Assembly (NCBI GenBank): GCA_001662655.1
Contig: KV460215.1
From: Pseudogymnoascus verrucosus
Taxonomy: Eukaryota
Reading direction: 5' to 3' (one strand)
DNA length: 64,000 nt
Shown: in pieces, positions 25,357-53,945 of the stretch
Layout: the number at the start of each line of letters is the position of its first letter
Numbering within the stretch: the stretch's first letter is position 1
Notes under the pieces: generated by a model
What the model was told of the DNA's origin: nothing
Databases searched by the model: none
Seen by the model: the letters and a program-made list of their open reading frames with translations, nothing else
Position numbers and translations under genes: made by a program

Positions 25357-27196
25357 ACGTATTTCACGGGCGAGTCGCCCACACGGGCGAGTCGCCCACC
25401 AGAACACCAAAACACGTCTATTACTACTACTACTACACCATCACCCTACATAATGACCCTTATTCAATTGAAATTGATTCCTAGCGCCTCTCGCACGTAC
25501 GGGAATTATGTCCGATCTTCTCACATCGGCTACAGCGCTTCTGTCGGCCCTTAGAACCCACCTGCCGACTACTCTCACTTACCACCTCCGTACGGATTTG
25601 AGCATCAACCTCAGTAGTATGAAGGATATCCTCTCCCTCCCGTACGGAGAGGCTTCCCCCTTGCATTATACGTCTCTTACGCTTCCTTTCCCTCCTCTTT
25701 TTCTGTTCATTTGCTGCTTGTAGAGCCTTAACTTCTGCCTTAAGTAGAGTAGCAGAATGCATCATAACCTGAGCTCCTTTAGCAAGCCGGCTTAGTGCGT
25801 TAGTAATTGAGCTAGGAGAGCTATTCTGATGCTGTATAATGCGGTTCCTAACGTGCTCTGTTTGAAAGTCAAGCTCCCTTATAGTTTGAGGAGTCTTTGA
25901 AGTCCAATTGTTACTCTCAACTATAGGAGGAGTTGGAGTCCTCAAGTGTAGATTCAAGTAAGAGAGGACATTCTGTGGCTCGTACGGAACTAGTCCTATA
26001 GCTCGGAACCCGCTCTTAATGTTCTGCTCTGTAAATGCAGCTTTAAATGCTTCTTTAAATGCAGAGAGAAACTCAAGCTTTGTAATATGATTTAGGCTGT
26101 TCCGTACAAAGCTTTCAATCTGACGTCTGTACGAAAGCTTTAGTGGAGCAAAGCAGCTAACATCAAGTGGCTGAAGAATGTGCGAGGAGTGTGGTGGCAT
26201 ACAGAGGGTGATTATCTTCCGTTCTGTACAGTAGTGTTGGAATTGAGCTGAGAGGTGGCTCTCATGCCCATCGAGAATAAGAAGGCGATAGGTTCCGACT
26301 GTACGAGCATTTGTATGCCGATCGAAGTGTTGAATCCACTTGTACCCAATTGAATTTGAAGTCCACCCATTCTCACTTAGCGTAATCACCTAATCGTCTG
26401 GCAATCCTAAGTCCTCGTACCAAGCAGAGAGGTGATTCTGTGCCTTAAAAATGATAAACGGCGGGAGTGCCCATCCGTACGAATTGACACCTTGGATAAT
26501 TGACACCTACTCTCTATTCCCTAGCTGTATAGTCTTCGGACGGCTCTTTACTTCTAAGCTTGTGACTACCTTTGCAGTAGCAATAACTCCCATTGCAAAA
26601 CCTGCTTCATTAAAGTTGTAGATGTCCTGCTCTAAGATGCCGTATTTTGCAACTGTGTTTCGTACGAGAGAAAACCACTCTTGAATTATCTTAGGATCTT
26701 CGCATTTTGCTCGTTTGTAATCGTACCTCCGACTAAACTTTGATTTAATTTCCGTACGACGCTTTATAAAGCTAGTAGCCTAGTTTATCCCAACAGGGCT
26801 CTCGCCTCGTTCGGAGAGTAGAAGGTCTGCCATTTCTTGCACAGCTTGTGGCCGGGGTGGAAACCCACGTGAATCTAGGTCGAGGATGTATTGAACAAGA
26901 GCTGACTCTTCGTACGGAGTCAATTTTCGTGAGTTAGGGGTAGAATCGCGTCGAGAAGTCATGCCGTGAATCCGATCGCGTAAGGTTGTTCGGGGGATAT
27001 CGTACGATGCTGCAGCTGCTCGAACGCTTTGAAATTGGCCTTGCTTAATTGCATGGATAGCTAATAGTATTCTACCCTCTTGATTAGAGGATTGGGCTTG
27101 TGTTGGTTGTGGCATTGTTAACTATAGATGGGTTGACGCGTTTTGGTGTTCTGGTGGGCGACTCGCCCGTGTGGGCGACTCGCCCGTGAAATACGT
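25357..27196 (-). mobile_element. pogo/Fot1-like Tc1-mariner DNA transposon (element A), RIP-inactivated
   Basis: 62-bp TIRs (25357-25418 and 27135-27196) beginning ACGTATTTCAC, TA target duplications, 1840 bp long. Confidence 0.96.
25481..27115 (-). pseudogene. DDE transposase of element A (HTH, CENP-B-like, DDE_1, CCHC knuckle)
   Basis: LILDGHESH, SSHILQPLDV and CSRCEKIGHNSRTC motifs. In-frame TAG at conserved Trp positions 26780-82, 26507-09 and 26390-92. Confidence 0.93.
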
Positions 27197-27284
27197 TAGT
27201 TTAGTTTATAAATATTTGTTACGATCCTCACTTCATACTCAAAACCTCACCGAAGGCGTCGCATCATCCAATCCAAACCACCCT

Positions 27285-27357
27285 GCCTGGGTAGCTCAAT
27301 CGGTAGAGCGTGTGACTCTTAATCTCAAGGTCGCGGGTTCGAGCCCCGCCTCGGGCT
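27285..27357 (+). tRNA. tRNA-Lys(CTT), intronless (copy 4)
   Basis: Same 73-mer and essentially the same trailer as copies 1 and 2. Confidence 0.92.
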
Positions 27358-27586
27358 CAAATCCCGAGTTTCTCTACAAGATTCTCTCATTATCTTTTTG
27401 CACTTTTTGAGTGGCCGAAGAGTGGATCAACTCCACCGTAGAAGCTCCCGGTGGCAAAGCGCCTCTCATACCTATACAGGAAACCAAAAACAACGACAAT
27501 GCTTCTTCTTCTAATCTAGAGTCTAAATGCAAGCATGAATCCCCCCCTCCCCCCCCTTCACAACACCCTGGGGTCTGAAAAAACCG

Positions 27587-30500
27587 CTAGATCTTGCTCA
27601 GCTTCTCAGTACAGCTTTGTAATACCCTCTTCACCCCTAGCGCGCGCTCATTCGCAGAGGCCTCACGGAGCTGCTTCCCAAAGTCCTCACTCAACCCGAC
27701 CCTCCCTGCCTGATCCTCCCCAAACACGCCCGCCACAACTGCATCAATTACTGCTTCTGCAGCCTCCGCGCGTTTCGTCCTCGCCACCTCGCTCCCTACA
27801 CCGGACGGCACTTCCAGTAACGAAAAATAGCCCGCTGCAAGGGCATAGTTGTCTCCAGGTTGCGGTGTACCTTTAGCTAGGGCGGCGAACTTGAGTTTGG
27901 AGCGCTCATAGAGGGCCACACGTGCGTTTATGCTTGATTTCTGGCTTGCAAAGACTGCGTTCATTCGCTCGAGCAGTTGAGGGAGATGTGTGAGTGGGTT
28001 CTCTACAACCCCTGGCTCGGTGTTCACAGCGCGTATTAAGGCGGAGACACCGTTGGTGATTGTGAGCGTATCTAACGAGCTGGCTTTCTTGTCGTCCTTG
28101 TCGTCAACGTCCATTTTATCGTCGCTAATAGCCTCTTCGAGCCATGGCCAAATGACATTGTGCACCTCGGTGAAGAGGTCCGTGTCTGTTCTCGCCTCGG
28201 CGTATTCGCCCAGAGCAAGGAAAGCATGAGGGCGATATGCATCGTTATTTCGTTTCGCTTCGCGGATTGCAATCTTCGTCATTTGCGCGGTGATTTTTGG
28301 ATCCTTCGACCAAAATGTCTTGCTGGCCTGTGAAAATTTGACAAAACTAGTCAAGACCTTCTCCTTGCCATCGAAGGTTTTAACAGCAAGGGCCCTTTCG
28401 AGCGCCGGCCATATAGCCGTGGAGTGTGGGATGCTGATATCTGTGCCCGCAGAGGTTACGACATCTGCTATAGTAACAGCGGCTGTATGCTTCACTGTCC
28501 ATTTAGGAGAATCGAGACGCTCGACTGCGATGTCGATAATCTCCTTCAGATATAGAAGGACAGCGCGAGAACCGCCGACATTCTCATCCCAAGTTTTAGT
28601 AAACTGATCTCTAACATGCTCGTCAAAGTCATGCTTAGCCATGAAAACAAAGGGCAGGAACTCAGTTGCGAGTGCATTGAACCGGTCTGTCGCAAATTTA
28701 GACATTGCGTATATGATGTCTGCAGATACCTGCCGGTGAGACTCGTCTTCGGCTGCGAAATATAAATTCTTTGAATAAGTTGCGAGTTTGAGAATTTGCT
28801 GATTCGAACCAAGCCGGGCTAGGTAGCCTGCAGCTCGGGCATATGCTGCGCTGACAGTGGAATTCCGATCGCGGACGGCCTTTTCCATATCCTTCAAAAA
28901 GATATCTGCGTGGGGCTTAAATAAGAAAGAATGTCTGGTCGCAAGACTAACGAGTACACCACTGCATCCAACTTTTGAAGGCATACCAACAGCTGTCTTG
29001 ATGACGTTTTCCAGATGGGGCACCAGATCTTTCATTGTCTTATCGTCTAGAAGATCTAAGCATCGTTCGATGGCTTCCATCATTGGTGAATGCGAAATAG
29101 CAGTACTGCGGGCTTCATCAATCTTCTCTTGCGTGGTATCGTACTTTGCAGCGTTCATGTGAAGATAATTGATGATATCTGGCTCCAGTGTGCTCAAAAG
29201 GCCCAATATTTGTTCGATGAGACTAGGAATAAATGGCAGTAGTGTTTTTCCACCGCTCTTTACAAGCTTCAGAACGGTATCGTATGCGAATTTCTGAACC
29301 TCATTTGACGGGCTTTCGAGACCCCGCGTCGAGAATAGGAAGGGCATGACCTCTTTCAGCATAACCTGAGCATTTTTGGAGGATGTACCAGCTTCAAGCT
29401 GTCGTACGAGAATCCCAGTGAGGACTTGGCACAACTTCTCAGCCGCCTTTCTGACAGATCCTTTGATATCATCGAGAACCTTGAAAGCAACTTCCCAGAT
29501 TTGAGCCAGGTATTTCTCGTACTTTTCAAACTGCCGTCCTTGAACTAGGTCCGCAATAGCCGCGCAACTTGCTTCTCTCGTACGCCATTCTTTACCCAGG
29601 ATGTTCTTTAGTAGGTCATCCATGATTGCATCAAAGTGCTCGTCGATGACAGCCGTGGGTGATTTGACGAGGGCATTCCAGATGTCGTTCATAGATCTCT
29701 GTACGTTCGGGTTTGGATCAAAGCGGTATCTAAATAGCTTAGGGTACAGCTTTGGATCAACTGCAGACTCGGACAAGATACTGCTGAGACCAAATCTTCC
29801 AAAGGCAGCTCTTGTTGACCACGTTGCAGCATTAGAAGCCAAAGACATGAACTTGTAAACGAGACTCTGGTCTCCAACTTCCGCAGCAAGTGACATAATA
29901 TCTTTATAAGACGTGACAGATTCGCCATTGCCGGTTGGAAGGGCACCGGGTTCGAAAAGTTCAGTGTCTTCCTCGACTTTAATTTTTGTTGAAGTTCCGG
30001 TAAATGATGCCACCAAATCTGCAACGAGACGCTCTCGGAGGTCCTTATCACCTTGTTCATACACAAGACTCAGCCCCCGTGATGCAGTTTCTTGGACGAG
30101 GTCATCTCGTGCTGATAATAGGCCCATAAATGCTGCTTGGCACTCTCGTAGTCGGCTTTGAATCTCTTGGAGGTGTCCACAGTATTGGATTAAAGAAAAG
30201 AGCCAAATTCCAGAGGCTTTTTTCAACGAGGGTTTGGTGTTTTTGCAATCTTTCAAGATTTTGCTGACTACACCCTCCAGTGTTGATGATCTTGTTGGGC
30301 CCTTGTAGTTTGCTTCGACGTCCAAAGTAAGAATCAAAGAGTCGGACTCCCATCCCGTTGAAGCCACTGCCAACGCCTCGCCGACTGTGAAATGAACTTC
30401 GGCTTGTCTCAGCTCATGCAGTTCATACAAACCCTTTAGTATTATAGCGAGTGGTGACTCTGGAGTCTCAAGAGTCTCCTCATCAAAGATCAGGGTAAAT

Positions 30501-33327
30501 CTACCAAGAGCTGAGATCGCCTTCTCATTTCCTTTCTTTGCTTCTGTTGTCAGCACCTTGATGATTGCAACTGCATCATCAGGAGAGGCCTCAAGTCGGG
30601 CTTCAGTTACTAGATCCACGGTGCTAAGGAGGCCAATGGCTATAAACGCAGATTCTTTGTTACTGGCGTCAGTTGCATTGCTGGCCATGTTCAGAATCAG
30701 CGTGACAGCTTCATCTATCAGTGCTACTTCAACATCGGCAATGCGTCCATAGAAGACGGCGCGACTCAGAAGGTACGAGACGGCAATTGTTGAACCGTGA
30801 ACCTTATTTGCTCCTGCTCCAACTGCCGAATCCCAAAGCTTAACAGACTGAATAAGTGCTTGTAATATTTTGTTCAGTTGATCTGCTTCACTCGACGGAT
30901 GGGCTCCAAGCATGCCCAGAGACTGAGCCGCAGTCTGCCTTGTTGCAACGTCGTTGGAAGCGATGGCTGGTAATAACTCAGAGGCTCGAGTGGCGAGTTC
31001 GGATAGACATGCCTGGGGCGCTAATGCTCCCAGTTCAACAAGTGATTTTCCGCAGTCTTCGAGCCCTTTACCATGCTTCCATAGCATTCCTTCAAATGCC
31101 GCAGTAAAAAAGATGCTCAAGTCCTCATGGCTTATAGTTTTCATATGATCTTTGACTAATTGTCGCGACGACTTATCTGTTCGGAGTAGCACATTGAGCT
31201 GGCGTTCCCAATCTGCCTCGCTGCCAATATCCTTCCCTTGCTGCGTCGCTGCTATTAGAAGCATTCGGCGGCAGTAAGCAACAGCATGATGGAAGGCGTT
31301 TATTCTATTCCCTGAGAAGTTACCGAAGACGGAGACGCTGTCGATATCCATGCCGGTGAGCATGGTGTTGGCGATATGGGAGTTTTCCATGAGAGTTTTC
31401 CCGGTAAAGAATACTCTGACAAGCTCGCCCCAATTCGGAAGAACGAGGTCATTCGTTCCTTCTGATAGATTGAGCAGACGGTACCAATATGGATCCTGAA
31501 TTGAATTAGTTATTTTAAATTCAATTCTGGACAGGGGAAGAAATCGAGTTACTCACCAAGCCTTTATTACCCTCTTCAAGCACGTCGCTTCTTTCCTCCG
31601 CGGGGCTTCCCAGAGCGAGAATATCTACCCATCTCCCCACAACATCGCTATACTCAAGGCAGCGATTTGCCCAGCGTACGGTCACAAACTTAGCGCTGCG
31701 TACGATAGTGTCATCTTTCTCTTGTAACATATAAGAAAGCAACAGTGACCGAAGTTCGTCTCGCAATGAAGAGTCCAATGGACCAGAAAATGCATTTAAC
31801 AGACTTGCCAATGCCCCTTCAATGCTAATGAAAATGCTTTCAGACGACCTTTCTTCAGTCAGAGACCGAAACAGCCAACGAATGAGATCAAGGCCAGGTT
31901 CAAGGACAGTTGATGGTACTGTCTTTGCCATTGAGCCAAGGGTCTCATATGCCAATGCTCGAAGAGCCAGTTCATCAGTAGACCGACTGTTGGGCACTGG
32001 CCAACCTTGCTCTTCAATGAAAGAACGGAGGAAGGTTATGATAGAAGGAGCGGCACGCTTTAAGTCATCCGGTGAACCCATTCTAGAAACCCAATTCATG
32101 AAGTTGAACATTGCGTTCCGCAATTTCAAGGCTTCCAGTCCTTGCACAGGAGGAGCATCAGGCATGGCCGGTTGTATGCTTCCCTGAACAATTCGGACAA
32201 TCTTATCTGGATATGTTGTTGACGCAGTAGATTTTGCCATCAACGTGAGAATACGTGTCTGAAGTGGCGGCTTCGAAGACATATATATATCGAAAAGCTT
32301 GCTAATTACAGACTTATCTTCTAATGACACTGTGCTTCGTTTAAGTAAATCTTCTCCGAAACTAGAAATCCGTGAGTTGGTGTCCGCAGCTGCAAATATT
32401 GCTGGGATAAAACGTTCTGGGTCTTTGAATGCTCCGCTAGTCAGAAACTTAAGAGCCGTTATTTTGGTCTCCGTTACGTTGAGACCTTCTTGGGCTTTTG
32501 GATTCCAAGTATCCTCTTTTCCATTCTGAGTGAGAAATGCATAGTCATCAGCGGATAGACCAGTACTGGCAATGCTTCCTCCACCAGAGCCTGCAAGGGA
32601 TTTGGCTGGATTGAATAAAACAAGCTTTCCAAACCAAGAAGCAACGAACTCCGCATCTTCTGGATGTTCGTCAAGGCCTAGCTTGGTACGAAGTTCGTCA
32701 TCTTCCTTGCTCCCTCTTACCGGTAGCCTCATCTGTGGCAACAGGCGTAAGAAGAGATTAAAAACTGTGGTACAAGTAGGCTTGCCGGCATCTTTGGCGA
32801 TCCCGTGCAGCAGGATTGGCAGTAGATCAATTTGTTCCTACTGCTGTCAGTTAAATCTTAAGGGCCTGTAAAGACGACGGACAGTTGAGGAAAGCTTGCC
32901 AATACTCTGCTGAATGAAGAGTAAGTCAAAGTGCCGTATCATGGACGACTCCGGGTTGTCTTTATACTGCTGCAGCAGCGCTGCAACTGGCAGGACAACA
33001 TTTCTGCGTGCTGTTAGCTATGAGTATAGTAACCCCGCCGCCACAGACAAACTCACTGGTTTCCCGAGAGTCTAATTTTTATATGCTGACAAGTTGCAAT
33101 AACCTACACAGGTCAATAAGTGGACACCAGATGGAAAATATTAATAAGCCAAAATACATTACCTTGTTTCGTACTGCTTGGTGTTCACTTCCAAGCTTTA
33201 GAAGCACGGGAGGAAGATACACCTTCAGAACCGATTCAAGCTTCTCGTCCTTGGCAAGAGCTATCCTCATCTCAACTTTACCAACGAGCTCCAGCTCGCG
33301 GGCTTCGGATGGGGCGGACGATGCCAT
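27587..33327 (-). CDS. ECM29: Proteasome adaptor/scaffold, HEAT-repeat protein (multi-exon)
   Basis: N-terminal RELELVGKVEMRIALA..YLPPVLLKL; KLYPKLFRYRFDPN, WRTREASCAAIADL and VQETASRGLSLVYE. Confidence 0.95.
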
Positions 33328-34032
33328 TATGCCTCGCTCCCCACTGCTCGGATACGGCAATGATTATAAAGACACGCGCTGAACTCAAAAAACCATCGCT
33401 TCAGGGGAAGCAATCGAAAGTGTAAGATGGAGGAGTAAAGTGAAATAAGGAATGAGAGAACTACTCTCCGTATAATGTAGTTTGAAGGAGACTCGTAACT
33501 CTAGGTCTGCCTTAATCCTTCTTCGCCACAAGCCTATTCCTATCTCGTAGTCGGCGAACGAGCAGGCAGTTATGGTGATGTGTGTACTTAAGACGTGACA
33601 CCGGGTATATTATAATCCGACCCGACGTCACCGGAGGGCTTATCCAGGAACTTCCAAAGCCCACCACGTCGGTGGCCAGGTCCGTTGGCTATTGCATCAC
33701 CTTACGTTAGCTATCATCGACGGCGAAAAAGGATTCACATTTTTCTCCCAATCTCTACTTTACCTCCCCAGGGTCCGCAAATTCATTCGGACACAGCAAG
33801 TCTGGAAAGTTCATAGTTTCGACCAAATACCAGTTTTCGGCGGGGCAAGGCACCTTGGAACTATCTGCACTTAGCACGATAGCCCGCCACTACAAACGAA
33901 CCATAAATCCACACAACCTCACCCCGCTACGTTTGTCAACAACACCACGTCCTTTCATCCCTTCCATCGACGAGGAATATAATCTTCTTTGACTCAACTC
34001 CAACCCGAGAATTTCATCGCTCGGTAGGCGTC

Positions 34033-35754
34033 ATGGACGACGCAGTGGGGGATTTCTGCGCCATCACTGGCGCAACTCCCCAGGTTGCACGACACTTCCT
34101 GAACCTTTCCGATAGCAACCCAAACCAAGCAATACAACTGTTCTTCGACTCACCCGAGCTGGCATCTGCCGCGAACGAGGAATCTCAACAAATACCAGCT
34201 GCTCCAGCTGCATCCAGTCGCCCTCCAGCGAGGAGTACTTCGGGGGGTCGCGAAGACGAACATGGAGTCGTCCACCTAGACTCAGACAGCGACGACAACG
34301 TAATGGACGAAACCGATGATGATTTTGTGGAAACATCGCATACACCGCCGGCTCCAGCTCCATCGACCGCTCCACAAAACTCTGCATACGAAGACGACGA
34401 AGCTATGGCACGAAGGCTCCAAGAAGAGATGTACGCGGGGGGCGATATGGGTGGAGACTTTGACGCAGATGGCGTGAGAGCTCCTCTCGCAAGAACAACC
34501 GAGACACTGGTCGGACCAGGTGCGGACTGGGGCCCAGAAGATACGCAGAGCAACGCCCTCCAGCAGCTGCGTCAGAGGGCGGCCATGGCGAGACCAAGTA
34601 AGTCGATTCGTGAAGGGACAAGGGCTATTTCATTTCACTAATCCCATCCAGGAGGGAGGGCCAGCGTTTTCAACCAATACGCATCTTCATCTTCGATATG
34701 GGAAAATGCCGATGCTGGACCTGCAGCGCATAGAGAAGGTCTGGCGGCTGCCACGGGGGGTCAATCAGAGACATCTACGAAAGCTGCTAGACTTGCAGAA
34801 CTCTTCCGACCTCCATTCGAGCTAATCTCACGCCTTTCTTGGGATGATGCCCGCGATCTGGGAAAAGAGGAGGAGAAGTGGATTTTAGTCAATATCCAGG
34901 ACTCCGCCGTTTTCGATTGCCAAGCCCTTAATCGCGACATCTGGAAGCACGAGGGAATCAAAGAGACTGTCAAAGAGAACTTCATCTTCATGCAGTACTC
35001 CAAGGATGACCCAGCTGGACAGCAATACATCCAATACTACTTCCAGCAATATGAGGACCAAAATGCGTACCCACACATCGCCATTGTCGACCCTCGTACG
35101 GGCGAGCAGCTGAAGGTCTGGTCTGGCCCACCAGCTCCCAAGTCCATGGATTTCCTAATGCAACTCCACGAGTTCCTTGATCGCTACAGCTTGGACGTCA
35201 CCGTCAAGAACCCAGTCGCCAGGCGAAAGGCCGAGAAACCTCCATCCATGGAAGTCGAAAAACTCACCGAACAACAAATGATGGATCTCGCACTCCAGAA
35301 CAGCCTGTCGAATGGCGCTGACACCGAAAGGAAGCACCATGATCCCGATGATCTGACCAAAAGCATCGGTGACATCAGCAAGGGCAAAGGAAAAGAGGAG
35401 GAAGAGCCAGAAGCCCAAGATGAGGAAATGGAAGACGTCAACGAAGAGGTTAACCCTGCATTTGCGAGCATACCATCTGATCAGCCTCATACGGAACCTA
35501 CCCCTGACCCAGTCACCACAACGCGCATCCAGTTCAAGCACTCCGGCGGCCGCGTCGTGCGCCGCTTCAACGTCGCGGATCCCGTGCGGAGGATCTACGA
35601 ATGGCTGAAGTCCGATCCTATTGATGGCAAGATCGGCGTCGCGTTTGAGCTCAAGAAGAGCATGGGTGGCGACCTCATTGAGATCCTGGACCAGCCGATC
35701 GCCGATTCGGGACTGAAGAATGGGACGGTTATGGTGGAGTATTTAGAGGGTTAG
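34033..35754 (+). CDS. UBX5: UBX-domain Cdc48 cofactor (UBA-like, UAS, UIM, UBX; Ubx5/UBXN7 type)
   Basis: FCAITGA..AIQLFF, ELFRPPF, FDCQALNRDIW and TTRIQFK..RVVRRF. Intron 34598-34651. Confidence 0.9.
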
Positions 35755-36134
35755 TGAGGTGTGGGGGTTGGGTTAGATGAGATAAGGGCATTTGCATCGG
35801 GCTTTATGAATGGATGGATGGATGGGTGTGATAGGGGGCGTTTGGCTTGAGAGGTAATGATCACGGTCTAGATCTAGAATGGAGGAGAGAGAGAGGAGTG
35901 AGGTAGCTCATGTCATAGAATGGAGACGGTGGTGGCCACATCTGGACCACGCCTGGCTCGTAACAGAGAAGAGAGTAGCTAGCAGCCGCCGATCTTTTGA
36001 GGACGCGGATTTCAACAGAATGAGAGGCTCATATAAGCTGGAGCAGAAGTAGTAATATACATCATCTCAAAAATAAACTGCAAACGGCCGTAAATCATAG
36101 TCTAGGGTATAGCAATAGCAAAAGCAAAAACAAG

Positions 36135-42677: not shown

Positions 42678-43377
42678 GTCGCAGGTGGTAGAAAGAGGGT
42701 TTGGGTAGGAATGTTGAACTGGCAATCTCTTGCTCCGGATGACCGCGTGAAAAGTAGTTACAGCCTTGGATATCCCGCAGTCGCTTAGTAGTTGGAGAAA
42801 TCGTCACGTGTTGGGGTTGGCGCCTGTCAAGAACAACGTAAACTCATTGGCGTAAAATTCTTGGCGATGGCAACGTTCCTTTCGTCCATTTTTAGAGGCA
42901 ATCCACATTTTTCACGAGAAATATGATAAGAGTGGGAAAAGTGGGAGTAAAACATATAAATAATAAGCAATTTAAACTTTCACACCAAGGTAAGCTTATT
43001 TATTTGTTTATGTCACAATAATCGCAAATCACAATTATCATTTTCAATTCAAGAAGAAAAAAGCAATAGAGCCAAGCAGGTCAATTATAGACTTCAATCT
43101 ATATACATGGCTCTTTGATAACAGACTTGTGCTACCCCAATATTAGCAACAATTTTACTACAAGTTAAACCAATAATGAGCGTTCTCTTGCGAGGGCACC
43201 CATATAAAATAAAGCCAGCCACTTTTTATTTTGAGGTGTTGGGCCGACATGCACACACTCCCTCAATTAAGCACCAGAAGCCTGGCGCCGCGGATGATGG
43301 AGCTGGCGAAAGAAATAAAACGACCTGCGTACGAAACTGCAAAAATATATCCGTAGATTTACGGTATGAGTGGAAGA

Positions 43378-43630
43378 TCAAGCTCCAATGGGCACGCATC
43401 TGGGATCGGTTTGGTGACAGTCGTAAGGCTCGTCTGCATGACAGGCCATGAGGCAAGTCAGATACCTAAAATGAATCCATGGCCGCGTATCGGTGGGAGG
43501 AGTAGTGGTTGGTGTGGCGACTGGGGTAGTAGTAGTAGTGCGAGCAGTAGTAGTGGGAGTAGTAGTAGTTGGAGTAGTAGTAGCGGGGGGGCGATAAGGC
43601 CGATTAATTCCCTGAAAATCCCGTTTTCCC
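43378..43630 (-). CDS. Putative alternative terminal exon of ppg1 (GKR, Thr-rich tract, 4-Cys peptide)
   Basis: Donor GTAAGT at 43689 overlaps the stop codon; TACTAAC branch point; CAG acceptor at 43631. The spliced product is in frame. Confidence 0.5.
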
Positions 43631-43685
43631 CTGAGAAGACAGTTAGTATCAGCCAATGCACAGAGGAACATGGTAAGCTTACAAC

Positions 43686-44432
43686 TTACAAGCTCGCAAG
43701 AGCCTCTGCAGCAGCCTCGGCAAGGGCATTCGCCTCACGCTTAGCCTTGCCGCATGGCTGACCGGGGCGCCAGCAGATAGCTTCGGCAGCGGCCTCAGCA
43801 TCACGCTTAGCTTTGCCACATGGCTGGCCAGGACGCCAGCAGATGGGCTCGGGGGCGGCCTCGGCGAGAGCAGATGCAATAGCCTCAGCGGCGCGCTTAA
43901 CTTTGCCACATGGCTGGCCAGGGCGCCAGCAGATAGCCTCGGCCTCGCGCTTGAGTTTCTCGTCAACGGGCTCAGCTACAGTTATGTCAGCATTGGTCTC
44001 CTTGGAAGATATAGGGGAAGGGGTGAACATACCCTCGGCAACGGCCTCTGGCTCTGGGAACGCCTCACGGATGGCGAGCTTATCGAAGAATGCCCCAGCC
44101 TCGGGATTGGCATTGGCAACGGCATGAGCGAGCGCCAAAGCAGCGCGCTTGGCTTTGCCGCACGGCTGGCCTGGACGCCAGCAGATGGCAGCAGCTTCGG
44201 CCTCGGCCTCGGCCTCACGCTTGACCTTGCCGCATGGCTGACCTGGACGCCAGCAGATTGGCTCGGCAATGGGCTCAGCGATGGCTTCGGCGAAGGCCTC
44301 GGCGGCGCGCTTGACTTTGCCGCAGGGCTGGCCGGGGCGCCAGCAGATTGGCTCGGGCTCGGCGACGGCGATGGCGGCGGAGTTGGCGCCCACCACGAGG
44401 ATGGCGAGGCAGAGGTTGGCGAGATACTTCAT
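43686..44432 (-). CDS. ppg1: Alpha-factor-like mating pheromone precursor with six copies of ICWRPGQPC(G)
   Basis: Signal peptide, X-Ala/X-Pro Ste13 spacers and Kex2 KR sites. Intron 44032-43976. Confidence 0.95.
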   Translation of the reverse strand: MKYLANLCLAILVVGANSAAIAVAEPEPICWRPGQPCGKVKRAAEAFAEAIAEPIAEPICWRPGQPCGKVKREAEAEAEAAAICWRPGQPCGKAKRAALALAHAVANANPEAGAFFDKLAIREAFPEPEAVAEGMFTPSPISSKETNADITVAEPVDEKLKREAEAICWRPGQPCGKVKRAAEAIASALAEAAPEPICWRPGQPCGKAKRDAEAAAEAICWRPGQPCGKAKREANALAEAAAEALASL

Positions 44433-45898
44433 GGTGTCGGGTGGTGGGGTGGTGGCGATGGGCTATGTGTTTGGATATGAATATTTGCCTGTCACGCAGT
44501 GACAGATTGAATTGCTGTTTATTTGGTAGAAGTGAAGATGTTAGATGTGATACAAGAAAGCCGGAAGTAGAGGAGATATCGAGTCCTTATATGCATTTTC
44601 GACAGCATGGCAATGGGTCCTGTCGATGTGACTGTTTGAAAGAATGAAGTGTGACTGAAGACTGAGGAAAGGGTTGGCGGTGTGTGCCATGGATCGTGGC
44701 TTTGTCAATTCCCAATCCATCCATCAATACGCCCCTCACAACGCAGGGCAGTAGTGCACATTCCATCGCGGCGGACAGACACAGACCCTGATCGGCTGCA
44801 ACATAAAGCAAGTGTAGGGACACCCTTAGCTGCCAGCAAGGGACATATCAAAAGATCTGCTCGGAGGCGCTCTAGAACAACGGCAAGTCGGATGGTAGGT
44901 GAGTAGTCGCACTGGTCCCAAGAGGCCCCTGAGCGTATCAGCATCGAGAGAATCCGACAGGAGTCCGAACAACATTTCTTGCAACATACCTCTTTCGGAC
45001 CCGAACAAACGGATATCAACTTCAATAATCGACGGAACCACACCCTCTGTTCAGTAGTGGCGTCGTTTAATGAGCTCCGGGCCCCGGCCCCCTGCACACG
45101 CGCTCTCCTTCTAGCCCATCAACCATAGAACAAGGCCACTCAAGCGTAGAGGCATCATGGGACACGTACCCTGCGTTGTGGTGATCGATGGAGGATAAAG
45201 ACTAAAAATGACAAGCTTGGAAAGGCTCTCATCTACGATCGACCATCGCGCGCGATCGAGCGTTGGATCTTTGTGCTTGGGTTGGCTGAGGGTGTGTTGA
45301 GGGGTGCGCTAAGCCGGATTCTTTTGATACCCCGATTAGGAAATTCTGAGGCTAAGCGAGGTTTTTTGGCGGATGCGCCTGGGGAAGGAACGCAGGGTCT
45401 CAAAGAGAGGTGATGAGTGGCTTTTTGGCGGTCTGAGGGACGGGATGTAGGGGATTGTCGAGGGGAGCTGTCGGCTGATGTGCCGTGTTGTGTTGTGTTG
45501 TGTTGTGTTGGGGCTGCAGGTGAGTAAGCTTTGGGATAGGGGACCAGTGACTGTTCTTGGTAGCTCGAGGCGATTACCACGGCTCTGTGGAATGCGAAGC
45601 TGACTTGTTTGAGGCACTCGTTGCTTGTCTTTGGGCAGTGGTCCGACGGATTTCGGGATGTCGTCGCCGCCTAGAATTCGCCAATTGTCGGATGAGGCAC
45701 ATAAGGCGCAAGGAACAGGGGACCTGTTTAGGGCGTCTTGTTCTCTGCATCAGCCACCACGCAAGAGCCCATCGAGTACCAGACTTCGATAATACTGGGA
45801 CAAAGGCCGAGTCGTGCTGAGTGGTGGGATGAACAGTCGTTGAGATGCGACGCTGAACAGAAACAGCAATAACCTCCGTTTGGGCAACAACACGGCTG

Positions 45899-45988
45899 GG
45901 CTGAATAGACAACTTGTTCTCCCGCATCAATAACAACAACACAAAAGCCGGCGCTGAACAGACAACTTGTTCTCCGCATCACTAACAC
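45899..45988. repeat. Direct repeat of about 38 bp, two copies, upstream of ppg1
   Basis: gctgaa(t/c)agacaacttgttctcc(c)gcatca(a/c)taaca occurs twice. A partial third copy, cttgttctctgcatca, lies near 45737. Confidence 0.75.
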
Positions 45989-46339
45989 ACCTCCGAGAAC
46001 TCCTCAAGTACCAGACTTGGAATTCAGCGGGCCAAACGACCCCGAGACTCGAGTTTTCTGACTCCTCGACATGTTGGCCAGTATTGTGACTATCTTCACC
46101 CTATCTTGCTCCTTGATTTGTGACTATCTTCAATTCTTTTGTTGGATCCTGTCTCAAAGACATGTGAATCCCATCATCAGGCCGCAGGTGCCTGAGTCAA
46201 CTCAGTAAGGGAAGTCAGGTGGTATGGTAATCTCGGTGTGGAGAGGAGGCCAACAGCCTGCTTACGTTGACCCCTGGCTGAGCCACCCCGAGTCTCCCCC
46301 ACACCACACCGGTCACACGGCTGGAGGGACACACGGGAT

Positions 46340-47475
46340 GTTCAGGTTCATTCAGGAACAGACCCCCCTTTCCAGAAGATCTTGTGTTAGGCGAAGGTTG
46401 AGTGAGATCCTGCACGTAGGTTCATGCCTCAGACCTTGATCCATAGACGCCGTTTGTTCACCCCCTACCGCACGGAGAAAACAATAAACCCCCATCCTGT
46501 ATGACCCTGTGTTGGGTGATCCCGCACGAAGTTCCCGTCTCAATGCCCCTCAATGATACCCACCATTTAGACCCTGCGCTGATATCCTGCACGAAGATCA
46601 CCCCTCGATCAATACACAACCTGTCGCCCCTTCCTCAAAACAAACGCTGGCCTTGAGAGATACTGCACGCAGCTCACCCCCGTTTAGAAAGACCCTGTGC
46701 TGAGATCCCGCACGAAAATCAGCCCTCACCCCCTGGTCAATACACTACTCATCACCACCTCCACGAAACAAACGCCAGCCTAGACAGATCCTGCACGCAG
46801 TTCACAAAGACTCTGCACTGAGATCCCGCACGAACGCCCCTCAGCCCTCGATCAATACACAACCTGTCAACCCCTCCAACAATAAACGACAGTCGCGAGA
46901 GCTCCACGTCTCAATAAACCCACCTCCCGTTTAAAACAACCTTGCGTTGAGATCCTGCATGACGATCGGAACTCCAACAAAACCCCTATTCTGTCTGATA
47001 TGACCCTGCGTTGGGAGGCTGAGTGAGATGATGCAGGAGATGTTCATGCCTCGGCTTTTGATCTAGAACTTTGGCCCTTGACCCTTGGTCTATAGAGACT
47101 GTTTGATATTATTTGATGCAGGTACCGCTAGGGTCGAGAGATGCTGCATCGAGTTCATGTCTCAACAGAACCCCTTTTTTCTGTAAGACCTCGTGTTGGA
47201 AAGTTGAGTGAGATCATACACGACGTTCACATCTTGCCCTTGATCCATACAACACTGTTGTGATCACCAGAACCCAAGAAAACTGCAGCCTTGAGAGATC
47301 CTCCACCGACTTCATGTCTCGACAGAACACCCCTTTCCGAAAAAACTTGACTTGGCAGATTCTGCTCAGCATTCACACCTCCGCCCTTGATTCATAGTCA
47401 CCACTTGCCACACCCCCATTGAGGAAGCGCAGGCTCTGAGAGATCCTACGCAAAATTCACACCACTCCCTTGATC
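46340..47475 (+). repeat. Complex degenerate array with a GAGATCCTGCACG-like core
   Basis: About 14 same-orientation cores, organised in higher-order units of about 120 bp and 150-190 bp. Confidence 0.8.
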
Positions 47476-47600
47476 CACGAATACATTCTCGTATCACCTG
47501 ACGCAGGAAACGCCGGCCTTGAATATTACTCCATAAGCGCTCTTCTACCTTGGCACCTCTATAGTACAAGGCAACATAATTTCTCCTCCCTTCATCCCCC

Positions 47601-48648
47601 TTACTCCTCCATCTTATCCCCCTCCTCCCCCTCCTTCTTCTCCTCATCCTCATCCTCCCCCTCCAGCGCCTCCTTCGCCGCCTTCTCCGCCTCCGCCAGC
47701 AACTCCCTCGGCACCTCCTCATGCCTCCCCTTCGTCGGCCCATCCAGCGCACTAATCCACGTCATCTCAAGCTCAAACTCCTTATCCTTATTCTCCTCAT
47801 GCGCCACGTAGATAATCCTCGCCGCCTCCTTGACTCCATCCGCCAAACTCAACGTGCCAGCCGCAAGATCAAGCTTCTCCAGCTCAGCCTTCGCGCTCTG
47901 TCGTCCCTTCCCTGTAGCAGCACCGTAGTACCCCCAGTACTGTCCGCTGGGCTCAATCATGTACAGCGCGGGTCCGCCGTACGTCTTTCCCTCTGCCTTG
48001 CCGCCGGCGCCGGAGGCGGGTCCGTCGCCAACTTGCCCGTCGACGGGGAGCTCGACTTCGGAGTCCCAGCCGCCGAGGATGGCGGTGATGCCGAAGGGGC
48101 GCACGGAGGAGTACAGGGTGTAGGCTTGGAGGTAGCCGCCCATGCGGCTGGCGAGGTCGGCAGTCGAGATGGGCGCCTTGTAGACTTCGCGCCACGAGGC
48201 CGCTTCGTCGCGGGCGCGCGACGTGAAGTGGCGTCCGTCGGGTACTAAGCCTGACGAGACCTGGAATAGTTAGTATATATATTTCTTAGCCGCGGTTCAT
48301 ATAAAGGACATACAGCTCCCATGTGTCTATCGATGGTGGCGATGCGTTTGTTGGCTTCTGGCTTCAGCAGCTTGGATGTGACGAGCTTCTCGACGGCGAG
48401 GACGACGCCGTCCTTGCAGCGGATGCCGATGGAGGTGCCGCCATTCTCGACAGCCTTGACGGCATATTCGACCTGGAAGTTGCGGCCGTCGGGGGAGAAG
48501 ACGGAGTTCTGGAGATCGTAACCCGTCCCTATCGAGGTCTGGAAGCTTCAGGTCAGTATATATATCTCCCGTTTGTGTCTGTGATCATCGTGGCATGGGG
48601 TTGCGGGAAGCTAGGGTGAAGGGCGGTGGGGAGGGACTGGCTGACCAT
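47601..48648 (-). CDS. PRE10: 20S proteasome subunit alpha-7
   Basis: ATG-only first exon, then [51 protein letters not shown] and an acidic tail. Confidence 0.96.
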
Positions 48649-49470
48649 GATGTGCAGATGGTGGGGGGGAGGAGTAGATCTGCTTGTGGGTTGTAGATTG
48701 TGATGATTGAGTGAATTAGATGGAGTGTAGTTGTTTTGAGAGAGCTCGGGTTTGGAGGTGAGCTTCTTGATGGAGCTCCAGGCACACAGCTCGATGCGCG
48801 TTGTCTGGCGAATGGATCTCGACTGATGCGCTAGAGTTGAGTTGGACTAGCGCAGCCTTGTGGAGCTCTGTGGCTGGTGAGGTGAGGCTGAGGTTGATGT
48901 GAGGCTGGGTGGGTGGATCACGTGATAATTTTATGTGTTATACGCATATGTATAAAAAGTATAACATTATGATATGCATAATAGAGTCGTCTACATAACT
49001 TTCTACTTGCATCCTCATCCTTGTATTGCTCTTCTTCTTCTTCTTTTGTTCGTAACGGCTTCGGTCGCATGGCACACAACTACAAACACTACAAACGCCA
49101 TGAAGCGCTATAAACGTCATGCCTCCATCCCACGCGCGTACTCTTTTGTATCTATTCACTCTATTCGCCCCATACGTGAGTATCATTTTCTAGCCCCTTA
49201 CACACACTCTCCATATATATTTCGATATATATATTTCCATGTATATCCCCATATATATACATACCCAAACTAGATCAACAAACATCCACTCCTAACCTCG
49301 TACTTCCAAAAAGGAAGCAGATGTACCCAGTGAGTGGAATCAGACGCAAGCCTGCCAGTCGTGTCGCCAAGTCATTGGGAGCAATTATGAGTATTGGGTG
49401 CAAAACTGCCTGAACAAGTGGAACGCTAATGCTCATTAATGCCTATTAACTCCTACAAAAACCTATGAAT

Positions 49471-49522
49471 TCCTAGACTATCCTAGACTATCCTGCCTAT
49501 CCTGCCTATCCTGCCTATCCTA
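49471..49522. repeat. 9-10-bp minisatellite: (cctagactat)2 then (cctgcctat)3
   Basis: Directly visible in the sequence. Confidence 0.85.
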
Positions 49523-50279
49523 CCTCATCCTGTCGTCGCTTCCACCGTTTCAACGCAAGCCATAAATCAAAAAAGGAGGGGTACGCAATCGTGACAAGCC
49601 AGTACAAAGGGCCGCCTATCCCACTCATCCCACCACACCCAACCATCCCTGAACTTCTAATATATAATCTCCCAACCCAACAACCCCTCCCTCATCTCTC
49701 CTCTCACCAAAACTCTTCTCTTCCTCCTTAATAACTCTCAACGAACAACTCTTCTTTGGCTTCATTCACATCTTGCAAAGCTACAAATACACGCTGCGGA
49801 TCTCTCCTCTGCTTTGTCTGGCCCACTTTCTTGGCCCTTCCCCGCTGTCACACCGCTCGCATCTTCTCTTTCTCCATATCCACCCCACCTGCCGTCCTGA
49901 AACTCTGAGCCTGACTCTTGCTTCCCTTCCGTCGCACATACTCTCAAGTATATAGCATAGTCAAAATACAAAAAGAAAACCCAAAAAAGAAAACAAAGAA
50001 TCTTGCTTCGTTCCAAAGTCCGCTGCGCTCAGCTCTTTGCGTCTCGTCATCACTTTGCACACACACATCTAACATACCAGATCTGCTGGAAACCACACAG
50101 GGCTACACTTCATATCTGCTGTCTCCATCCCATATCTCTCACATCGCTCTTCTACTCCCTCACAAAGCAAGTCTGCACACATCCCCCGCTGCGCACCACC
50201 CACAAGGTCAGCATCCAAATACATATTGTTCACCCTACTGATCCTCCCCTCACAGGCTCACCAGCCACAGCCATCCACC

Positions 50280-51143
50280 ATGGCAGCAACGCAAGAAGAG
50301 CTCTCCGCCCTCTTCTCCCGCACCCTCTCCTTTCAACCCCCTGCTCCCGCCCCCGCACCAATCCACCAAACCACCCCACCGAGCGAAGCAATCACCTACT
50401 CCATAACGCAACACTACCACCACTCCTCGCACATCGCCTCCCAACCCGCCCCCGCCCCGGCCCCAGCACAAACTACCGACGACCACACAACATCCATAAT
50501 CCTCTCCCGCCACGGCGTCGACGTCTCCTCCCTCTTCCCTTCCCAAATCGCGCTCTTCCAATCCGCGGAGCCGGCACAACAAATGCGTCTCGTGGAACTC
50601 TGGCGTATTTCCCCGCCTACATACGGCGGACATGCTCTAGCGGCAGAGCAGCCGGCGTGGCCGGTTACGAGCGTCGCGCAGGAGGAGGCTGCCGCGCAGG
50701 CGAGGTATGAGCGCGCTATGCTTGAGGAGAGGGCTGCGAGGCATAACTCTATGGAGGTGGGAGGTGACGACGTGATGAGTGATGGGGAAGTGAGTAACAC
50801 CCCACTAACTCCCATTCTCGGCGGTGGAGATGGTCGCGGGGTTAGTGCGGTGGAGCCATACATGGCGTCTGGATACGAGGCGTTAGCAGCGCGGGAGTAT
50901 GAGATTTCGGCCCAGCAGCCGGCGAAGGATGCGTATTCGCATTTTGGGACGGCGATGGGCGGGGCGCCAACAGTGGCGTATAGTAGGGCGACGGATCCGG
51001 TGTATGCGGCGGCAGGGGCGGGGTGGGCGACGAGGGGCGAGCAGGAACAGAGGGCTGCGATGGAGGATGCGTATGGGGGGTTTGTGCAGAGGGGGTATGG
51101 GGGGGTGTGTTTTGGGTATACGGGGGATCAGGAGATGTTGTAG
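50280..51143 (+). CDS. Uncharacterised fungal protein
   Basis: ATG in good context (caccATGG). Contains ordered blocks YSITQHYHHSSH, ILSRHGVDVSSLFPSQIALF..RLVELWRISPP and EPYMASGYE. Confidence 0.75.
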   Translation: MAATQEELSALFSRTLSFQPPAPAPAPIHQTTPPSEAITYSITQHYHHSSHIASQPAPAPAPAQTTDDHTTSIILSRHGVDVSSLFPSQIALFQSAEPAQQMRLVELWRISPPTYGGHALAAEQPAWPVTSVAQEEAAAQARYERAMLEERAARHNSMEVGGDDVMSDGEVSNTPLTPILGGGDGRGVSAVEPYMASGYEALAAREYEISAQQPAKDAYSHFGTAMGGAPTVAYSRATDPVYAAAGAGWATRGEQEQRAAMEDAYGGFVQRGYGGVCFGYTGDQEML

Positions 51144-51658
51144 GGGCGGGGGTGATTGGATGGAATGGGATGGGAAATGGGGGGAAGGGGAGTACATATT
51201 GCGTTTTGTTGGGGGGTTTGATTCGTTGGTTTATGTCTGGGTGGCTTGGTATGGCATATATGGAGATGTGGGGTGGGTGAAGGGATAAGGGGTATATTAT
51301 ATGTTCTTCGTTGGGGTCAGGTTATTTCTTTCTTGCGTTCTAGGCAGCATTACCTCTTCTCTCTATGTTATTTGCTTGCTTGCTATTTGGTTCTTTAAGG
51401 GATCGATGTGGTGGGAAACTGACGCTTTTGTTGAGGTACGTCGCTCCCTCCTTTCCTCCCAAACTATAACCATGTCCCCAATCCCCCAAATACCCTCTTT
51501 CTTCTCCCCATACGACTATGCATGTAGGTCTAGGTGTTGGTGTTTATTTAAATAGGCTCTCCTTATATCGTGTGCTTAATATTTTTTATAAGAATTCTCA
51601 ATACCAATATACAATTTAATCAAATAAAATCAAATAAACTATTTATCAAAATTACATA

Positions 51659-53519
51659 ACGTACTTGCATAGCGAACGGACCACCATAGCGAGTGGACCA
51701 CTTTTCCTTACATCTACTACTTCCTACTATTAACGCGACTTTTCTCAACGAACTATAATGGAATCTTCTTCAATTGAATGTCGTATAATCCTTGCCCTTA
51801 AAGCACTTAAAAACGACCAAAATCTTACTAGCCGAGCTGCAGCAAAGATCTATGAAGTCCCTCATACGACACTTTTACGACGACGCGATGGCAAGAAGTC
51901 ACGACGCGATATCTCTGCCAACTCTAGAAAATTAACTAATCTTGAGGAATCTGTGATTCTTCGACGTATACTTGACCTAGACTCACGAGGATTTCAGCCC
52001 TAGCAAAGCCATATTCAAGAAATGGCTAATTGTCTTCGTACGGACCGTAACGCGTCACGCGTCGGACCACGATGGGTAGAGAACTTTGTTAAGCGCTACC
52101 CTAAGCTTACTATGGCTTTTCGACGTCAAATTGACTACTAGAGGGCTAAATGCGAAGATCCTAATGTCGTACGAGCCTAGTTTACGCTTGTGTAGAATGT
52201 TATTGCTAAGTACGGCATCCAAGACGCAGATATCTACAACTTTGACGAGACTGGGTTTTTAATAGGCATGCTCTTAAGCGCAAAGGTGGTTACAAGCTCC
52301 GAACGACGTGGCAAGCCTCGTACGAAGCAGCCAGGCAATCGAGAATGGGTTACAGTAATCTAGGGTGTGTGCGCGACTGGCTAGGCAGTACCTCCGTACG
52401 TGGTTGTTAAAGGCAAATATCACCTCCTGTCCTAGTACTAAAACGGCCAATTCCCAAAGGATTGGAGGATTTACACGAGCGAAAACGGTTGGACTACAAA
52501 CGAGATTGGCCTAGATTAGATAAAACACTTCAATCAGCATACTAAAGCTCGTACGAAGGGTGTTTATCGCCTCTTAGTCCTTGATGGTCACGAAAGCCAT
52601 CACTCCTCTAACTTTAAGGACTACTGCTAAGAGAACAACATTATCACGCTTTGCATGCCTCCTCACTCGTCTCATTTCCTCCAGCCTCTTAATGTTAGGT
52701 GTTTTGGCCCACTTAAGACCTCGTACGGCAAGCAAATTGAGAAAATGATGCGGATGCAGATTACCCACATTACTAAGGACGACTTCTTCGCTGCATTTTT
52801 AGAAGCTTTTAACGCTTCTATAACTAAAAAGAACATACAAGCAGGCTTTAAGGCTACTAGTCTTCTTCCGTACGACCCTAAGTTAGTAATTGCTCGCCTA
52901 GACCCAAAGCTTATTACGCCATCTCCACCAACCTCTCGCTCAGGAACTCCTAACTCCTAGGTTACAAAGACACCTCAGACAGCGTACGAGGTTAATCAGC
53001 AGTCTACAACTATTAAAAACAAGATTGCTAAGCACTAAGATAGCTCTCCAACCCATATGTACACTATAATTGATGCCTAAGCTCGAGGTATGTCGAAAAT
53101 GGCACACGAGCTAGTGTTACTACGGGCGGAGCTAAAGGCTGTACGAGCTGCTAATGAGGTGCTTAGCAAGCGCCGGAGGGCTAAAAAAGCACGTTTACGG
53201 CAAGGAGGGTCACTTAGTTTCCAAGAAGCTGAAGACTTAGTAGCTGAGAATGAGGTGGATAAGCAGATTAAGGAGGAAACACATCGTGGTAGTCGTCGTA
53301 CAGAGGTAGCTGAACCACGTACGCGACGCTGTGGCATATGCAGCAACACTGGCCATAATGCGCGAACCTGTCAAGTAGTAGTAGTTGCATCTGAAGAAGA
53401 CGATTCTGAGTAGTTTTAATTAATTTAATGTGGTTGGTGTTCGTACGGCTATTTTATAATGTGTACGTAGGAAAAAGTGGTCCACTCGCTATGGTGGTCC
53501 GTTCGCTATGCAAGTACGT
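51659..53519 (+). mobile_element. pogo/Fot1-like Tc1-mariner DNA transposon (element B), heavily RIP-mutated
   Basis: TIRs of about 47 bp beginning ACGTACTTGCATAGCGAAC; TA at 51657-58 and 53520-21. Confidence 0.96.
51758..53413 (+). pseudogene. DDE transposase of element B
   Basis: NFDETG, LVLDGHESH, QPLNV (D>N) and CGICSNTGHNARTC motifs. More than 10 in-frame TAG/TAA codons. Confidence 0.93.
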
Positions 53520-53521
53520 TA

Positions 53522-53945
53522 ACGTATTTCACATGCGAGTTGCCCACCCAAGCGAGTTGCCCACCCCATTTTACACCCAAAATCATGAATTTTGTAACTA
53601 AATATCTCAACAACTATTTATTGGTAAATTATAAAAATGTATATTTAGCCTTTTATAGGCATTTAAAGCATCTTGTCTAACTTTTAAAGCAACTAGTAGT
53701 ATAGTTATTAAGATACTAAGTTTTAGCCCCCACTTTAGACCTAAATCTTAGTACCTCAATATCTACAAGATCAATTAGTTTAAAAATCAGAAAAGATACT
53801 TTAAATGACTATGAAAGGCTAAATACATAATTTTATAGTTTACTACTATATAGTTGTTGAGATATTTAGTTACAAAGTTCATGATTTTGGGTGTAAAATG
53901 GGGTGGGCAACTCGCTTGGGTGGGCAACTCGCATGTGAAGTACGT
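53522..53945. mobile_element. MITE (424 bp) with TIRs of about 96 bp related to element A
   Basis: TIRs at 53522-53617 and 53850-53945, AT-rich interior with no transposase ORF, TA on both sides. Confidence 0.93.

Follow-up and report, generated by a model that had tools for sequence, protein, structure and literature searches.

Ac/Ds elements carry AAACGG hexamers as repeated subterminal transposase-binding motifs. In bacteria, uptake signal sequences and Chi are over-represented oligomers that occur genome-wide in coding DNA. Repeated transposase-binding motifs in subterminal regions are outlined for the pogo-like elements Lemi1/Emigrant (PMC1636448), and the opening of an abstract on mPing/Ping reports that internal sequences modulate the mobility of a cut-and-paste element (PMC9921582). 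The palindrome CGTACG is considered here in two pogo-like transposons of Pseudogymnoascus verrucosus, elements A and B. Both lie in a 64,000-nucleotide stretch of contig KV460215.1 (assembly GCA_001662655.1), which is referred to as the window. A sequence-only reading of the window had drawn attention to the word and had proposed that it is either a selected cis-code or the product of a repeat-targeted mutational sink. It was found that CGTACG is strongly enriched in both elements and was inherited from relatives that have few stops or none, that separate clades of the family acquired it independently, that individual copies lose it, and that it is independent of both repeat-induced point mutation (RIP) and the termini.

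CGTACG resembles the motifs of Ac/Ds and Lemi1/Emigrant, as the latter are outlined, in that one DNA transposon contains many copies of a short word. Their motifs, however, are in the non-coding subterminal regions and are kept in miniature inverted-repeat transposable elements (MITEs), whereas 18 of the 19 CGTACG sites lie inside an open reading frame (ORF), a MITE adjoining B has none and the word is independent of the termini. What is shared with mPing/Ping is that sequence in the body of the element, beyond the terminal inverted repeats (TIRs), can matter. The opening of that abstract mentions no palindromic hexamer or codon override, however. Like uptake sequences and Chi, CGTACG occurs in all frames of the ORF far above the codon expectation, and it shapes the choice of both codon and residue. 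Uptake sequences and Chi differ in being bacterial and genome-wide; CGTACG is limited to clades of one eukaryotic transposon family, and the host DNA is not enriched.

Excess of CGTACG in the elements and their relatives

Elements A and B belong to the Fot1/pogo group of Tc1/mariner by their DDE_1 transposase with N-terminal HTH domains of the CENP-B/Psq type, and by their TIRs, TA duplications, single ORF and lengths (Table 1). The TIRs of A are 64 bp long with 98.4% identity, and its transposase contains the Pfam domains DDE_1 (1.6e-32), HTH_psq and HTH_Tnp_Tc5. The TIRs of B are 49 bp long with 100% identity, and the same domains are found in its transposase (DDE_1 at 4e-29). The two proteins are 49% identical. 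The start first given for B has to be moved to 51659, as 51657-51658 is the TA target duplication.

CGTACG occurs exactly 29 times in the window, with 9 sites in A, 10 in B and 10 elsewhere. The 19 positions listed earlier for the elements all proved to be exact, and near-matches are present as had been noted, for example three TGTACG/CGTACA in A and three in B. Whole-window shuffles that preserve dinucleotides gave a mean of 7.31 and a largest count of 14, none of the 100 reaching 29. When each element was shuffled 2000 times in the same way, the mean was 0.28 for A (maximum 3) and 0.49 for B (maximum 5), and an order-3 Markov model expects 2.5 and 3.6. In a codon-aware null, synonymous codons were permuted inside each ORF with the protein and the codon usage kept (1000 permutations each). 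This yielded 0.93 sites in A and 0.96 in B, with a maximum of 4, versus the 9 observed in each ORF. The excess persists after correction for both dinucleotides and codons. The other 60.3 kb, which is host DNA, has its 10 sites versus 6.4 (order 1) or 5.6 (order 3) expected. The tetranucleotide GTAC is found 16 times in A and 19 times in B versus 2.2/kb in host DNA; in the elements it mostly stands between C and G. Regular, nucleosome-like spacing was considered; the gaps between sites are 76-172 bp plus one of 335 in B, and they range from 52 to 495 bp in A. The sites are mostly at non-homologous positions, as had been claimed: site 377 is the only one common to A and B, all three codon phases are used, and one site of B is outside the ORF.

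Of 8000 candidates scored in a protein search, 2833 proved to be relatives. In metagenomes 364 stretches matched; a relative is encoded by 285 of them, and the top 80 of these were retained as L001-L080. The family analyses cover 82 elements. Members of the family occur in environmental metagenomes, soil and pond among them, and also in several related genomes. Together the 80 loci have 138 CGTACG versus 21.4 expected from dinucleotides. The spread is very uneven, and 32 of the 80 have none. Relatives of A have 4-8 each (L001 8, L003 7, L005 7, and L071 6 in half a gene), with the exception of L007, which has 1. Relatives of B have 3-8 (L034 8), a third clade has 4-6 (L068 6) and L045 has 5. 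L034, L068 and L045 are free of stops, as is L062 with 5 sites. Within the subfamilies the sites are inherited: A has 7 of 9 sites in common with L001, and B has 6 of 9 coding sites in common with L034. These relatives are ~87-89% identical and come from elsewhere. The earlier statement that the sites are not due to shared ancestry is thus correct between A and B but not within subfamilies. In the protein tree clades with 0-1 copies lie between the high-count A-clade, B-clade, L068-clade and L045, and the high-count clades mostly use different sites. L004 and L006, which are sister to the A-clade, have 0. The positions that recur most widely among the 82 elements are 328 (28 elements), 150 (11) and 37, 271, 377 and 539 (9 each). 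At sites 271 and 328 A itself has CGTACA, whereas its clade relatives retain CGTACG.

A pooled codon-aware count gives 144 CGTACG versus 27.8 expected. This test is confounded by ancestry, as GACGCG is also inflated (182 versus 35), and it was therefore replaced by a distinct-site test in which each alignment site is counted once, to remove the effect of shared ancestry. With a median third-position entropy of 1.65 bits and many codons close to fixation, synonymous sites in the family are far from saturated, so pooled counts are inflated. By the distinct-site test on the 82 elements CGTACG has 40 sites versus 17.1 expected and ranks first of 3808 hexamers, for which the median ratio is about 0.72. 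ACGCGT is second (30 versus 14.5, a ratio of 2.07). The ratios are 0.59 for CGCACG and 0.63 for CGTGCG, the precursors of CGTACG, 0.6-1.2 for other alternating two-CpG hexamers and 0.84 for palindromes overall. CGCGTA and TACGCG, which are permutations of the same units, reach only ~1.2. Without the A- and B-clades CGTACG still has 22 sites versus 11.3 and ranks third of 4035. The trait is clade-specific on a mild family-wide background. A general class effect was rejected: alternating purine-pyrimidine words, RIP-immune RCGY words, palindromes and two-CpG hexamers have class ratios of 0.6-1.05, and only CGTACG and ACGCGT are outliers.

The sequence-only reading held that protein constraint does not explain the sites, and the use of permissive positions, the ranking of multi-copy hexamers and the first rank in the distinct-site test all bear this out. 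Permissive positions are those at which a synonymous choice could spell CGTACG. A uses 9 of 15, B 9 of 14, L001 8 of 11 and L034 8 of 14. About four clades hold the signal, and in these 50-73% of the permissive positions spell the word. The number of such positions per element is 8-15 in high-count clades and 1-9 (most 1-6) in low-count clades, so the protein itself has shifted in sequence. In A, B, L001, L034 and L005 no multi-copy hexamer ranks above CGTACG by the codon-aware measure, and any other hexamer has at most 6 copies in each of the 69 elements tabulated. Clade-specific sites are often 3-5 bases from the outgroup state and include transversions and amino-acid changes; at site 194 AAG GCA has become CGT ACG. 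Site 67 of A reads CAAAAG, CAAAGG, CCCAAG or CCGAAG in the compared relatives that do not have the word, and the residues there in proteins P0011-P0017 are PE, SL, PQ or SQ. In the closest intact relatives, P0003-P0010, the residues at the sites of A (SYD, PYE, RRTE, LVRN, NSYGW, VPYEP and RTCE) are identical to those of A, and several of the residues encoded at its sites are also kept across the wider protein alignment. A cause at the level of DNA is indicated, over and above constraint on the protein.

In a rival reading the excess has no function. Founder effects, through a few master copies that were rich in the word by chance, may have combined with biases in codon context or tetranucleotides, in the element or the host, which the null models miss. 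Ancestry does inflate pooled counts at unsaturated synonymous sites, the signal is concentrated in four clades, GTAC itself is raised and stop-free copies with zero motifs exist. However, the distinct-site test still places CGTACG first, two lineages with 49% protein identity reach 9 each at different sites, 60-64% of the permissive positions of A and B are used while their number is itself raised, and the permuted words CGCGTA and TACGCG stay close to expectation. An origin of this kind is considered rather unlikely. If the excess were a compositional by-product, it would serve as a warning that a k-mer excess in a transposon family should be tested per independent site and not per copy.

RIP and the direction of change

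The RIP of fungal repeats has left its signature in B and, mildly, in A. Among the 89 changes polarised in B, C>T and G>A account for 58; CpA is the context of 30 C>T changes and CpG that of 16, and all 13 stops are TAG or TAA. In A, 23 of 75 changes are of this type, and the three internal TAG stops are all at conserved Trp codons. The RIP indices of the elements are shifted relative to host DNA. In some ascomycetes UAG, the type of internal stop seen in A, is recoded to UGG by A-to-I mRNA editing in the sexual stage. What differs from the usual signature is that CGTACG is not a RIP product, and that RIP here also mutates CpG and erodes the word. RIP contexts were compared in four pairs (B and L034, L002 and A, L078 and L022, L055 and L023), in which L034, L022 and L023 have 0-1 stops. 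RIP-type C>T changes strongly prefer a pyrimidine at -1 (YCA, YCG). The least mutated CpA contexts are those with G at -1 (3 of 43 in B, 1 of 60 in L078) and those with C at +2 (5 of 45 in B, 2 of 28 in L078), and GCAC>GTAC is therefore a cold context for RIP. CpG and CpA are mutated about equally in B (26 of 191 versus 34 of 177) and in L002 (44 of 146 versus 32 of 177), so RIP erodes CGTACG in these copies. In L055 and L078 CpG is mostly spared by RIP-type change. Hardening of codons against RIP was rejected as a role for the word, as the flanks, with Y at -1 and R at +1, place its outer C and G in a RIP-prone context.

The possibility that RIP made the sites from CGCACG or CGTGCG by CpA>TpA changes is very improbable, in keeping with the sequence-only reading. 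One of the 18 coding sites, site 524 of B, fits such an origin, B bears the RIP-type changes described above, and both precursors are slightly under the family baseline of about 0.73. The other 17 coding sites, however, are present in relatives or are older than the RIP of the copy. The phase-1 sites use conserved Tyr codons (TAC), which RIP could not create from a conserved residue, and the local preference for Y at -1, with avoidance of G at -1 and C at +2, disfavors the required change. The shortfall of precursor sites is only ~4 of 40.

Polarity was inferred by parsimony for 67 of the 82 leaves, each compared with its sister and an outgroup. Where CGTACG is kept in both sister and outgroup (n=42), it was retained in 24 cases and lost on the terminal branch in 18. 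None of 85 one-step precursors became CGTACG on a terminal branch by parsimony with outgroups. These losses without gains argue against a repeat-targeted mutational sink and fit accumulation in active lineages. By looser criteria 33 motifs are unique to one leaf and 35 are absent from one leaf, while control two-CpG hexamers have 8-29 unique. Many of the apparent gains are one CpG transition away from their neighbours, and parallel losses could produce them. RIP-mutated copies drop sites: L002 retains 5, and B lacks two of the eight sites of L034 (150 and 517). The B family was found in contigs of four organisms, in one of which it is represented by 423 pieces with C>T (111) and G>A (115) predominant. 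Motif bases are changed in 2 of the 40 variant rows listed (of 452), at positions 52727 and 52869. The copies decay individually, and richness in CGTACG belongs to the lineages that produced them.

The mutational sink of the sequence-only reading is disfavored on these counts, the CpGs of the motif being lost like others. A related idea is that a mutation or repair bias targeted to repeats or heterochromatin pushes transposon DNA toward CGTACG, for example through a sequence-specific repair of T:G mismatches where DNA is methylated, for which very-short-patch repair is a bacterial analogue. The excess is indeed confined to transposon DNA and absent from the neighbouring host genes, site variants are mostly CpG<->TpG/CpA transitions, and a palindrome is what a strand-symmetric process would be expected to leave. 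The polarity counts and the site losses in RIP-mutated copies argue against such a bias, though, as do the sites that are 3-5 bases from the outgroup and include transversions and residue changes (site 194). Motif bases are also changed like others in other genomic copies (52727 G>A, 52869 C>T). A bias of this type is judged improbable.

Possible roles of the word

The sequence-only reading had suggested that the sites resemble the ACGTA termini, which finds no support. The ends are TA followed by ACGT in 38 of the 44 members with TIRs found, whatever the internal count of CGTACG, including zero, and a MITE with A-type ends is without the motif. Related ideas were rejected as well. CG-TA-CG is not a preferred TA target, as CG before TA was found in none of the 38 left flanks read. 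For an origin from tip-to-tip junctions, A at -1 and T at +1 would be needed, and these are the rarest flanks (5 and 3 of 40). Over the 40 sites the base at -1 is T in 20, G in 9, C in 6 and A in 5, and that at +1 is A in 19, G in 12, C in 6 and T in 3, which is weakly palindromic. Transposase-binding subterminal repeats do not fit, as the sites are spread over the ORF, only 1 of the 19 is non-coding, the MITE has none and the count is independent of the TA-ACGT ends. The lack of CGTACG in the MITE and of a link to the termini suggests that the word acts not in cleavage but in how the autonomous copy is expressed, is silenced or persists.

A role at the level of RNA, in the structure, stability or translation of the transposase mRNA, is distinctly improbable. 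Coding sequence has 1.08 CGTACG per kb, the non-coding parts of the elements have 0.25-0.56/kb and host flanks have 0.23/kb. At phase-2 sites the word falls in the codon pair GTA-CGA or GTA-CGG, the first of which is inhibitory in yeast. The contrast between coding and non-coding sequence is weak, however, as each element has only ~100-150 bp of non-coding sequence outside the TIRs, and one site of B (53442) is non-coding. The use of all three codon phases is contrary to a codon-pair effect, and a self-complementary word of 6-8 bases would give no stable RNA structure.

The second hexamer of the family, ACGCGT, clusters upstream of the ATG, in the 5' non-coding stretch that follows the left TIR; 3986 bp of such sequence hold 11 copies (2.76/kb), versus 0.09/kb in host flanks. 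B carries the one-off form ACGCGA at 51733-51738. ACGCGT presumably corresponds to the MluI cell-cycle box of fungal G1/S promoters, which it matches, and from its sequence and its place upstream of the ATG it may be a promoter element. Like CGTACG it is a palindrome with two CpGs made of ACG and CGT. It is a different word, however, located in the 5' region and not in the ORF, and the counts of the two are barely correlated (r = 0.14). The 5' concentration of ACGCGT fits the idea that the elements collect short palindromic regulatory words.

Why would a transposon write the same palindrome many times into its only gene? The simplest possibility is that the active lineages of some clades selected a palindromic site, as a candidate binding-site cluster along the element. 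This is put forward tentatively, at somewhat less than an even chance. The palindromic core, the weak T and A flanks and the surplus of independent sites would be indirect indications of such a cluster. CGTACG (weakly TCGTACGA) would then be a DNA-level word that active lineages of a few Fot1/pogo clades accumulated along the body of the element, overriding synonymous codon choice and partly altering the amino-acid sequence. A and B would be dead descendants of two such lineages, with inherited sites that CpG decay and RIP would now be removing. As for mechanism, the most likely would be selection at the level of the element, through a transmission advantage, for a putative cluster of palindromic sites of a dimeric sequence-specific factor. 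A host factor is judged likelier than the transposase to be the binder, and its effect may be on whether the autonomous copy is expressed, silenced or rescued, not on the chemistry of cutting. We infer both the binding of a protein to CGTACG and its effect. Possible advantages would include escape from heterochromatin or RIP-linked silencing, expression timed to the cell cycle and recombinational rescue of mutated copies. A stronger form, in which separate lineages convergently wrote CGTACG into their transposase genes (at ~60% of allowed positions and with residues changed) as the binding of a host factor gives the autonomous copy a transmission advantage, is possible but doubtful. A selected cis-code, with a hypothetical function, is the best of the options offered by the sequence-only reading.

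Several observations weigh against selection of a binding site. With the four high clades removed only a mild excess is left (13 versus 8.9, rank 35 of 3986). Stop-free members with 0 CGTACG exist (L004, L018, L024, L052, L053, L064, L066 and L079), and the family as a whole can thus do without the word. The MITE, whose ends are of A type, also lacks CGTACG. The CpGs of the motif are no better kept than others (21 of 84 lost versus 490 of 2438), and the sampled copies are thus without a sign of purifying selection; in dead copies, however, such selection on the motif CpGs would not be expected. CpG hypermutability lets parallel loss mimic gain, so the polarity of gains and losses is not rigorous. 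The metagenomic relatives carry no host assignment, so a host-specific cause and a clade-specific cause are inseparable. A literature search, which covered listings and abstract openings, gave no paper on CGTACG in fungal transposons, and no binding factor is known.

If CGTACG is a selected site, a fungal DNA transposon can hold inside its ORF a dense cis-code that overrides the choice of codon and residue, and a palindrome of 6-8 bp would be a handle on a host factor that aids or restrains transposons in RIP-proficient fungi. If selection acted convergently, the word would be to transposons what Chi or uptake signals are to bacteria. As the family is widespread among environmental metagenomes and related genomes, the question can be addressed with public data.

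Features of the window

The positions of the elements, their CGTACG sites and other features of the window are collected in Table 1.

Table 1. Features of the two transposons and their surroundings, in window coordinates; all site rows are CGTACG.
Feature	Position	Strand	Codons or residues	Remarks
Element A, Fot1/pogo-type DNA transposon	25357..27196	(-)		1840 bp; TA flanks 25355-56, 27197-98
Element A transposase ORF	25481..27115	(-)		TAG stops at residues 112, 203, 242; TAG also at residue 545
A site 37	27001..27006		TCG TAC GAT = S-Y-D, phase 1	also in L001, L003, L005, L007, L009, L026, L029, L071
A site 67	26911..26916		CCG TAC GAA = P-Y-E, phase 1	only A, L001, L002, L071
A site 120	26753..26758		CGT ACG = R-T, phase 0	also in L001, L005, L011, L026, L071
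A site 150	26661..26666		CTC GTA CGA = L-V-R, phase 2	11/82 elements
A site 212	26476..26481		TCG TAC GGA = S-Y-G, phase 1	also in L002, L003, L005, L017, L071
A site 377	25981..25986		CCG TAC GAG = P-Y-E, phase 1	sole A/B homologous site
A site 490	25641..25646		TCC GTA CGG = S-V-R, phase 2	also L002; relatives CATACG, CATACA, TATACA
A site 508	25589..25594		CGT ACG = R-T, phase 0	A only; L002 CGTACA, L001 CAAACG
A site 539	25496..25501		CGT ACG = R-T, phase 0	C-terminal CCHC knuckle; 9/82 elements
ACGCGT	27136..27141			immediately upstream of A's ATG
Element B, Fot1/pogo-type transposon	51659..53519	(+)		1861 bp, RIP-mutated; TA at 51657-58, 53520-21
Element B transposase ORF	51758..53413	(+)		551 codons, 13 internal TAG/TAA stops
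B site 100	52037..52042		R-T, phase 0	also L062, L074; L034 TGTATA, L067 CGCGCG
B site 143	52168..52173		GTC GTA CGA, phase 2	also L034
B site 194	52319..52324		R-T, phase 0	also L034, L062; most of family AAG + ACN/GCN
B site 219	52395..52400		CCG TAC GTG, phase 1	also L034
B site 271	52550..52555		R-T, phase 0	9/82 elements
B site 328	52722..52727		TCG TAC GGC, phase 1	28/82 elements; 52727 G>A in other copies
B site 377	52869..52874		CCG TAC GAC, phase 1	52869 C>T in other copies
B site 412	52983..52988		GCG TAC GAG, phase 1	also L062; L034 CATACG
B site 524	53318..53323		R-T, phase 0	RIP-type CpA>TpA product; L034 CGCACG
B 3' non-coding site	53442..53447			between stop codon and right TIR
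MITE-like element	53522..53945			424 bp, A-type TIRs; shares TA 53520-21 with B right end
tRNA-Lys(CTT) genes, three	27285-27358, 5118-5191, 5866-5939

The TIRs of the MITE are 82-84% identical to those of element A over 44 bp, and its interior is AT-rich. B and the MITE share one TA, so one of them was inserted into the target duplication of the other. The host ORFs around the elements encode ECM29, a glycogen debranching enzyme, a VIT/VWA protein and a kinase, and the product of an IDH1 ORF in the window is 99% identical to a Pseudogymnoascus protein. One of the tRNA-Lys(CTT) genes has element A 88 bp upstream of it. In the host DNA of the window the top over-represented hexamers by an order-1 model are TATATA (48 versus 7.5 expected) and ATATAT (49 versus 10.1), an excess that probably reflects TA microsatellites.

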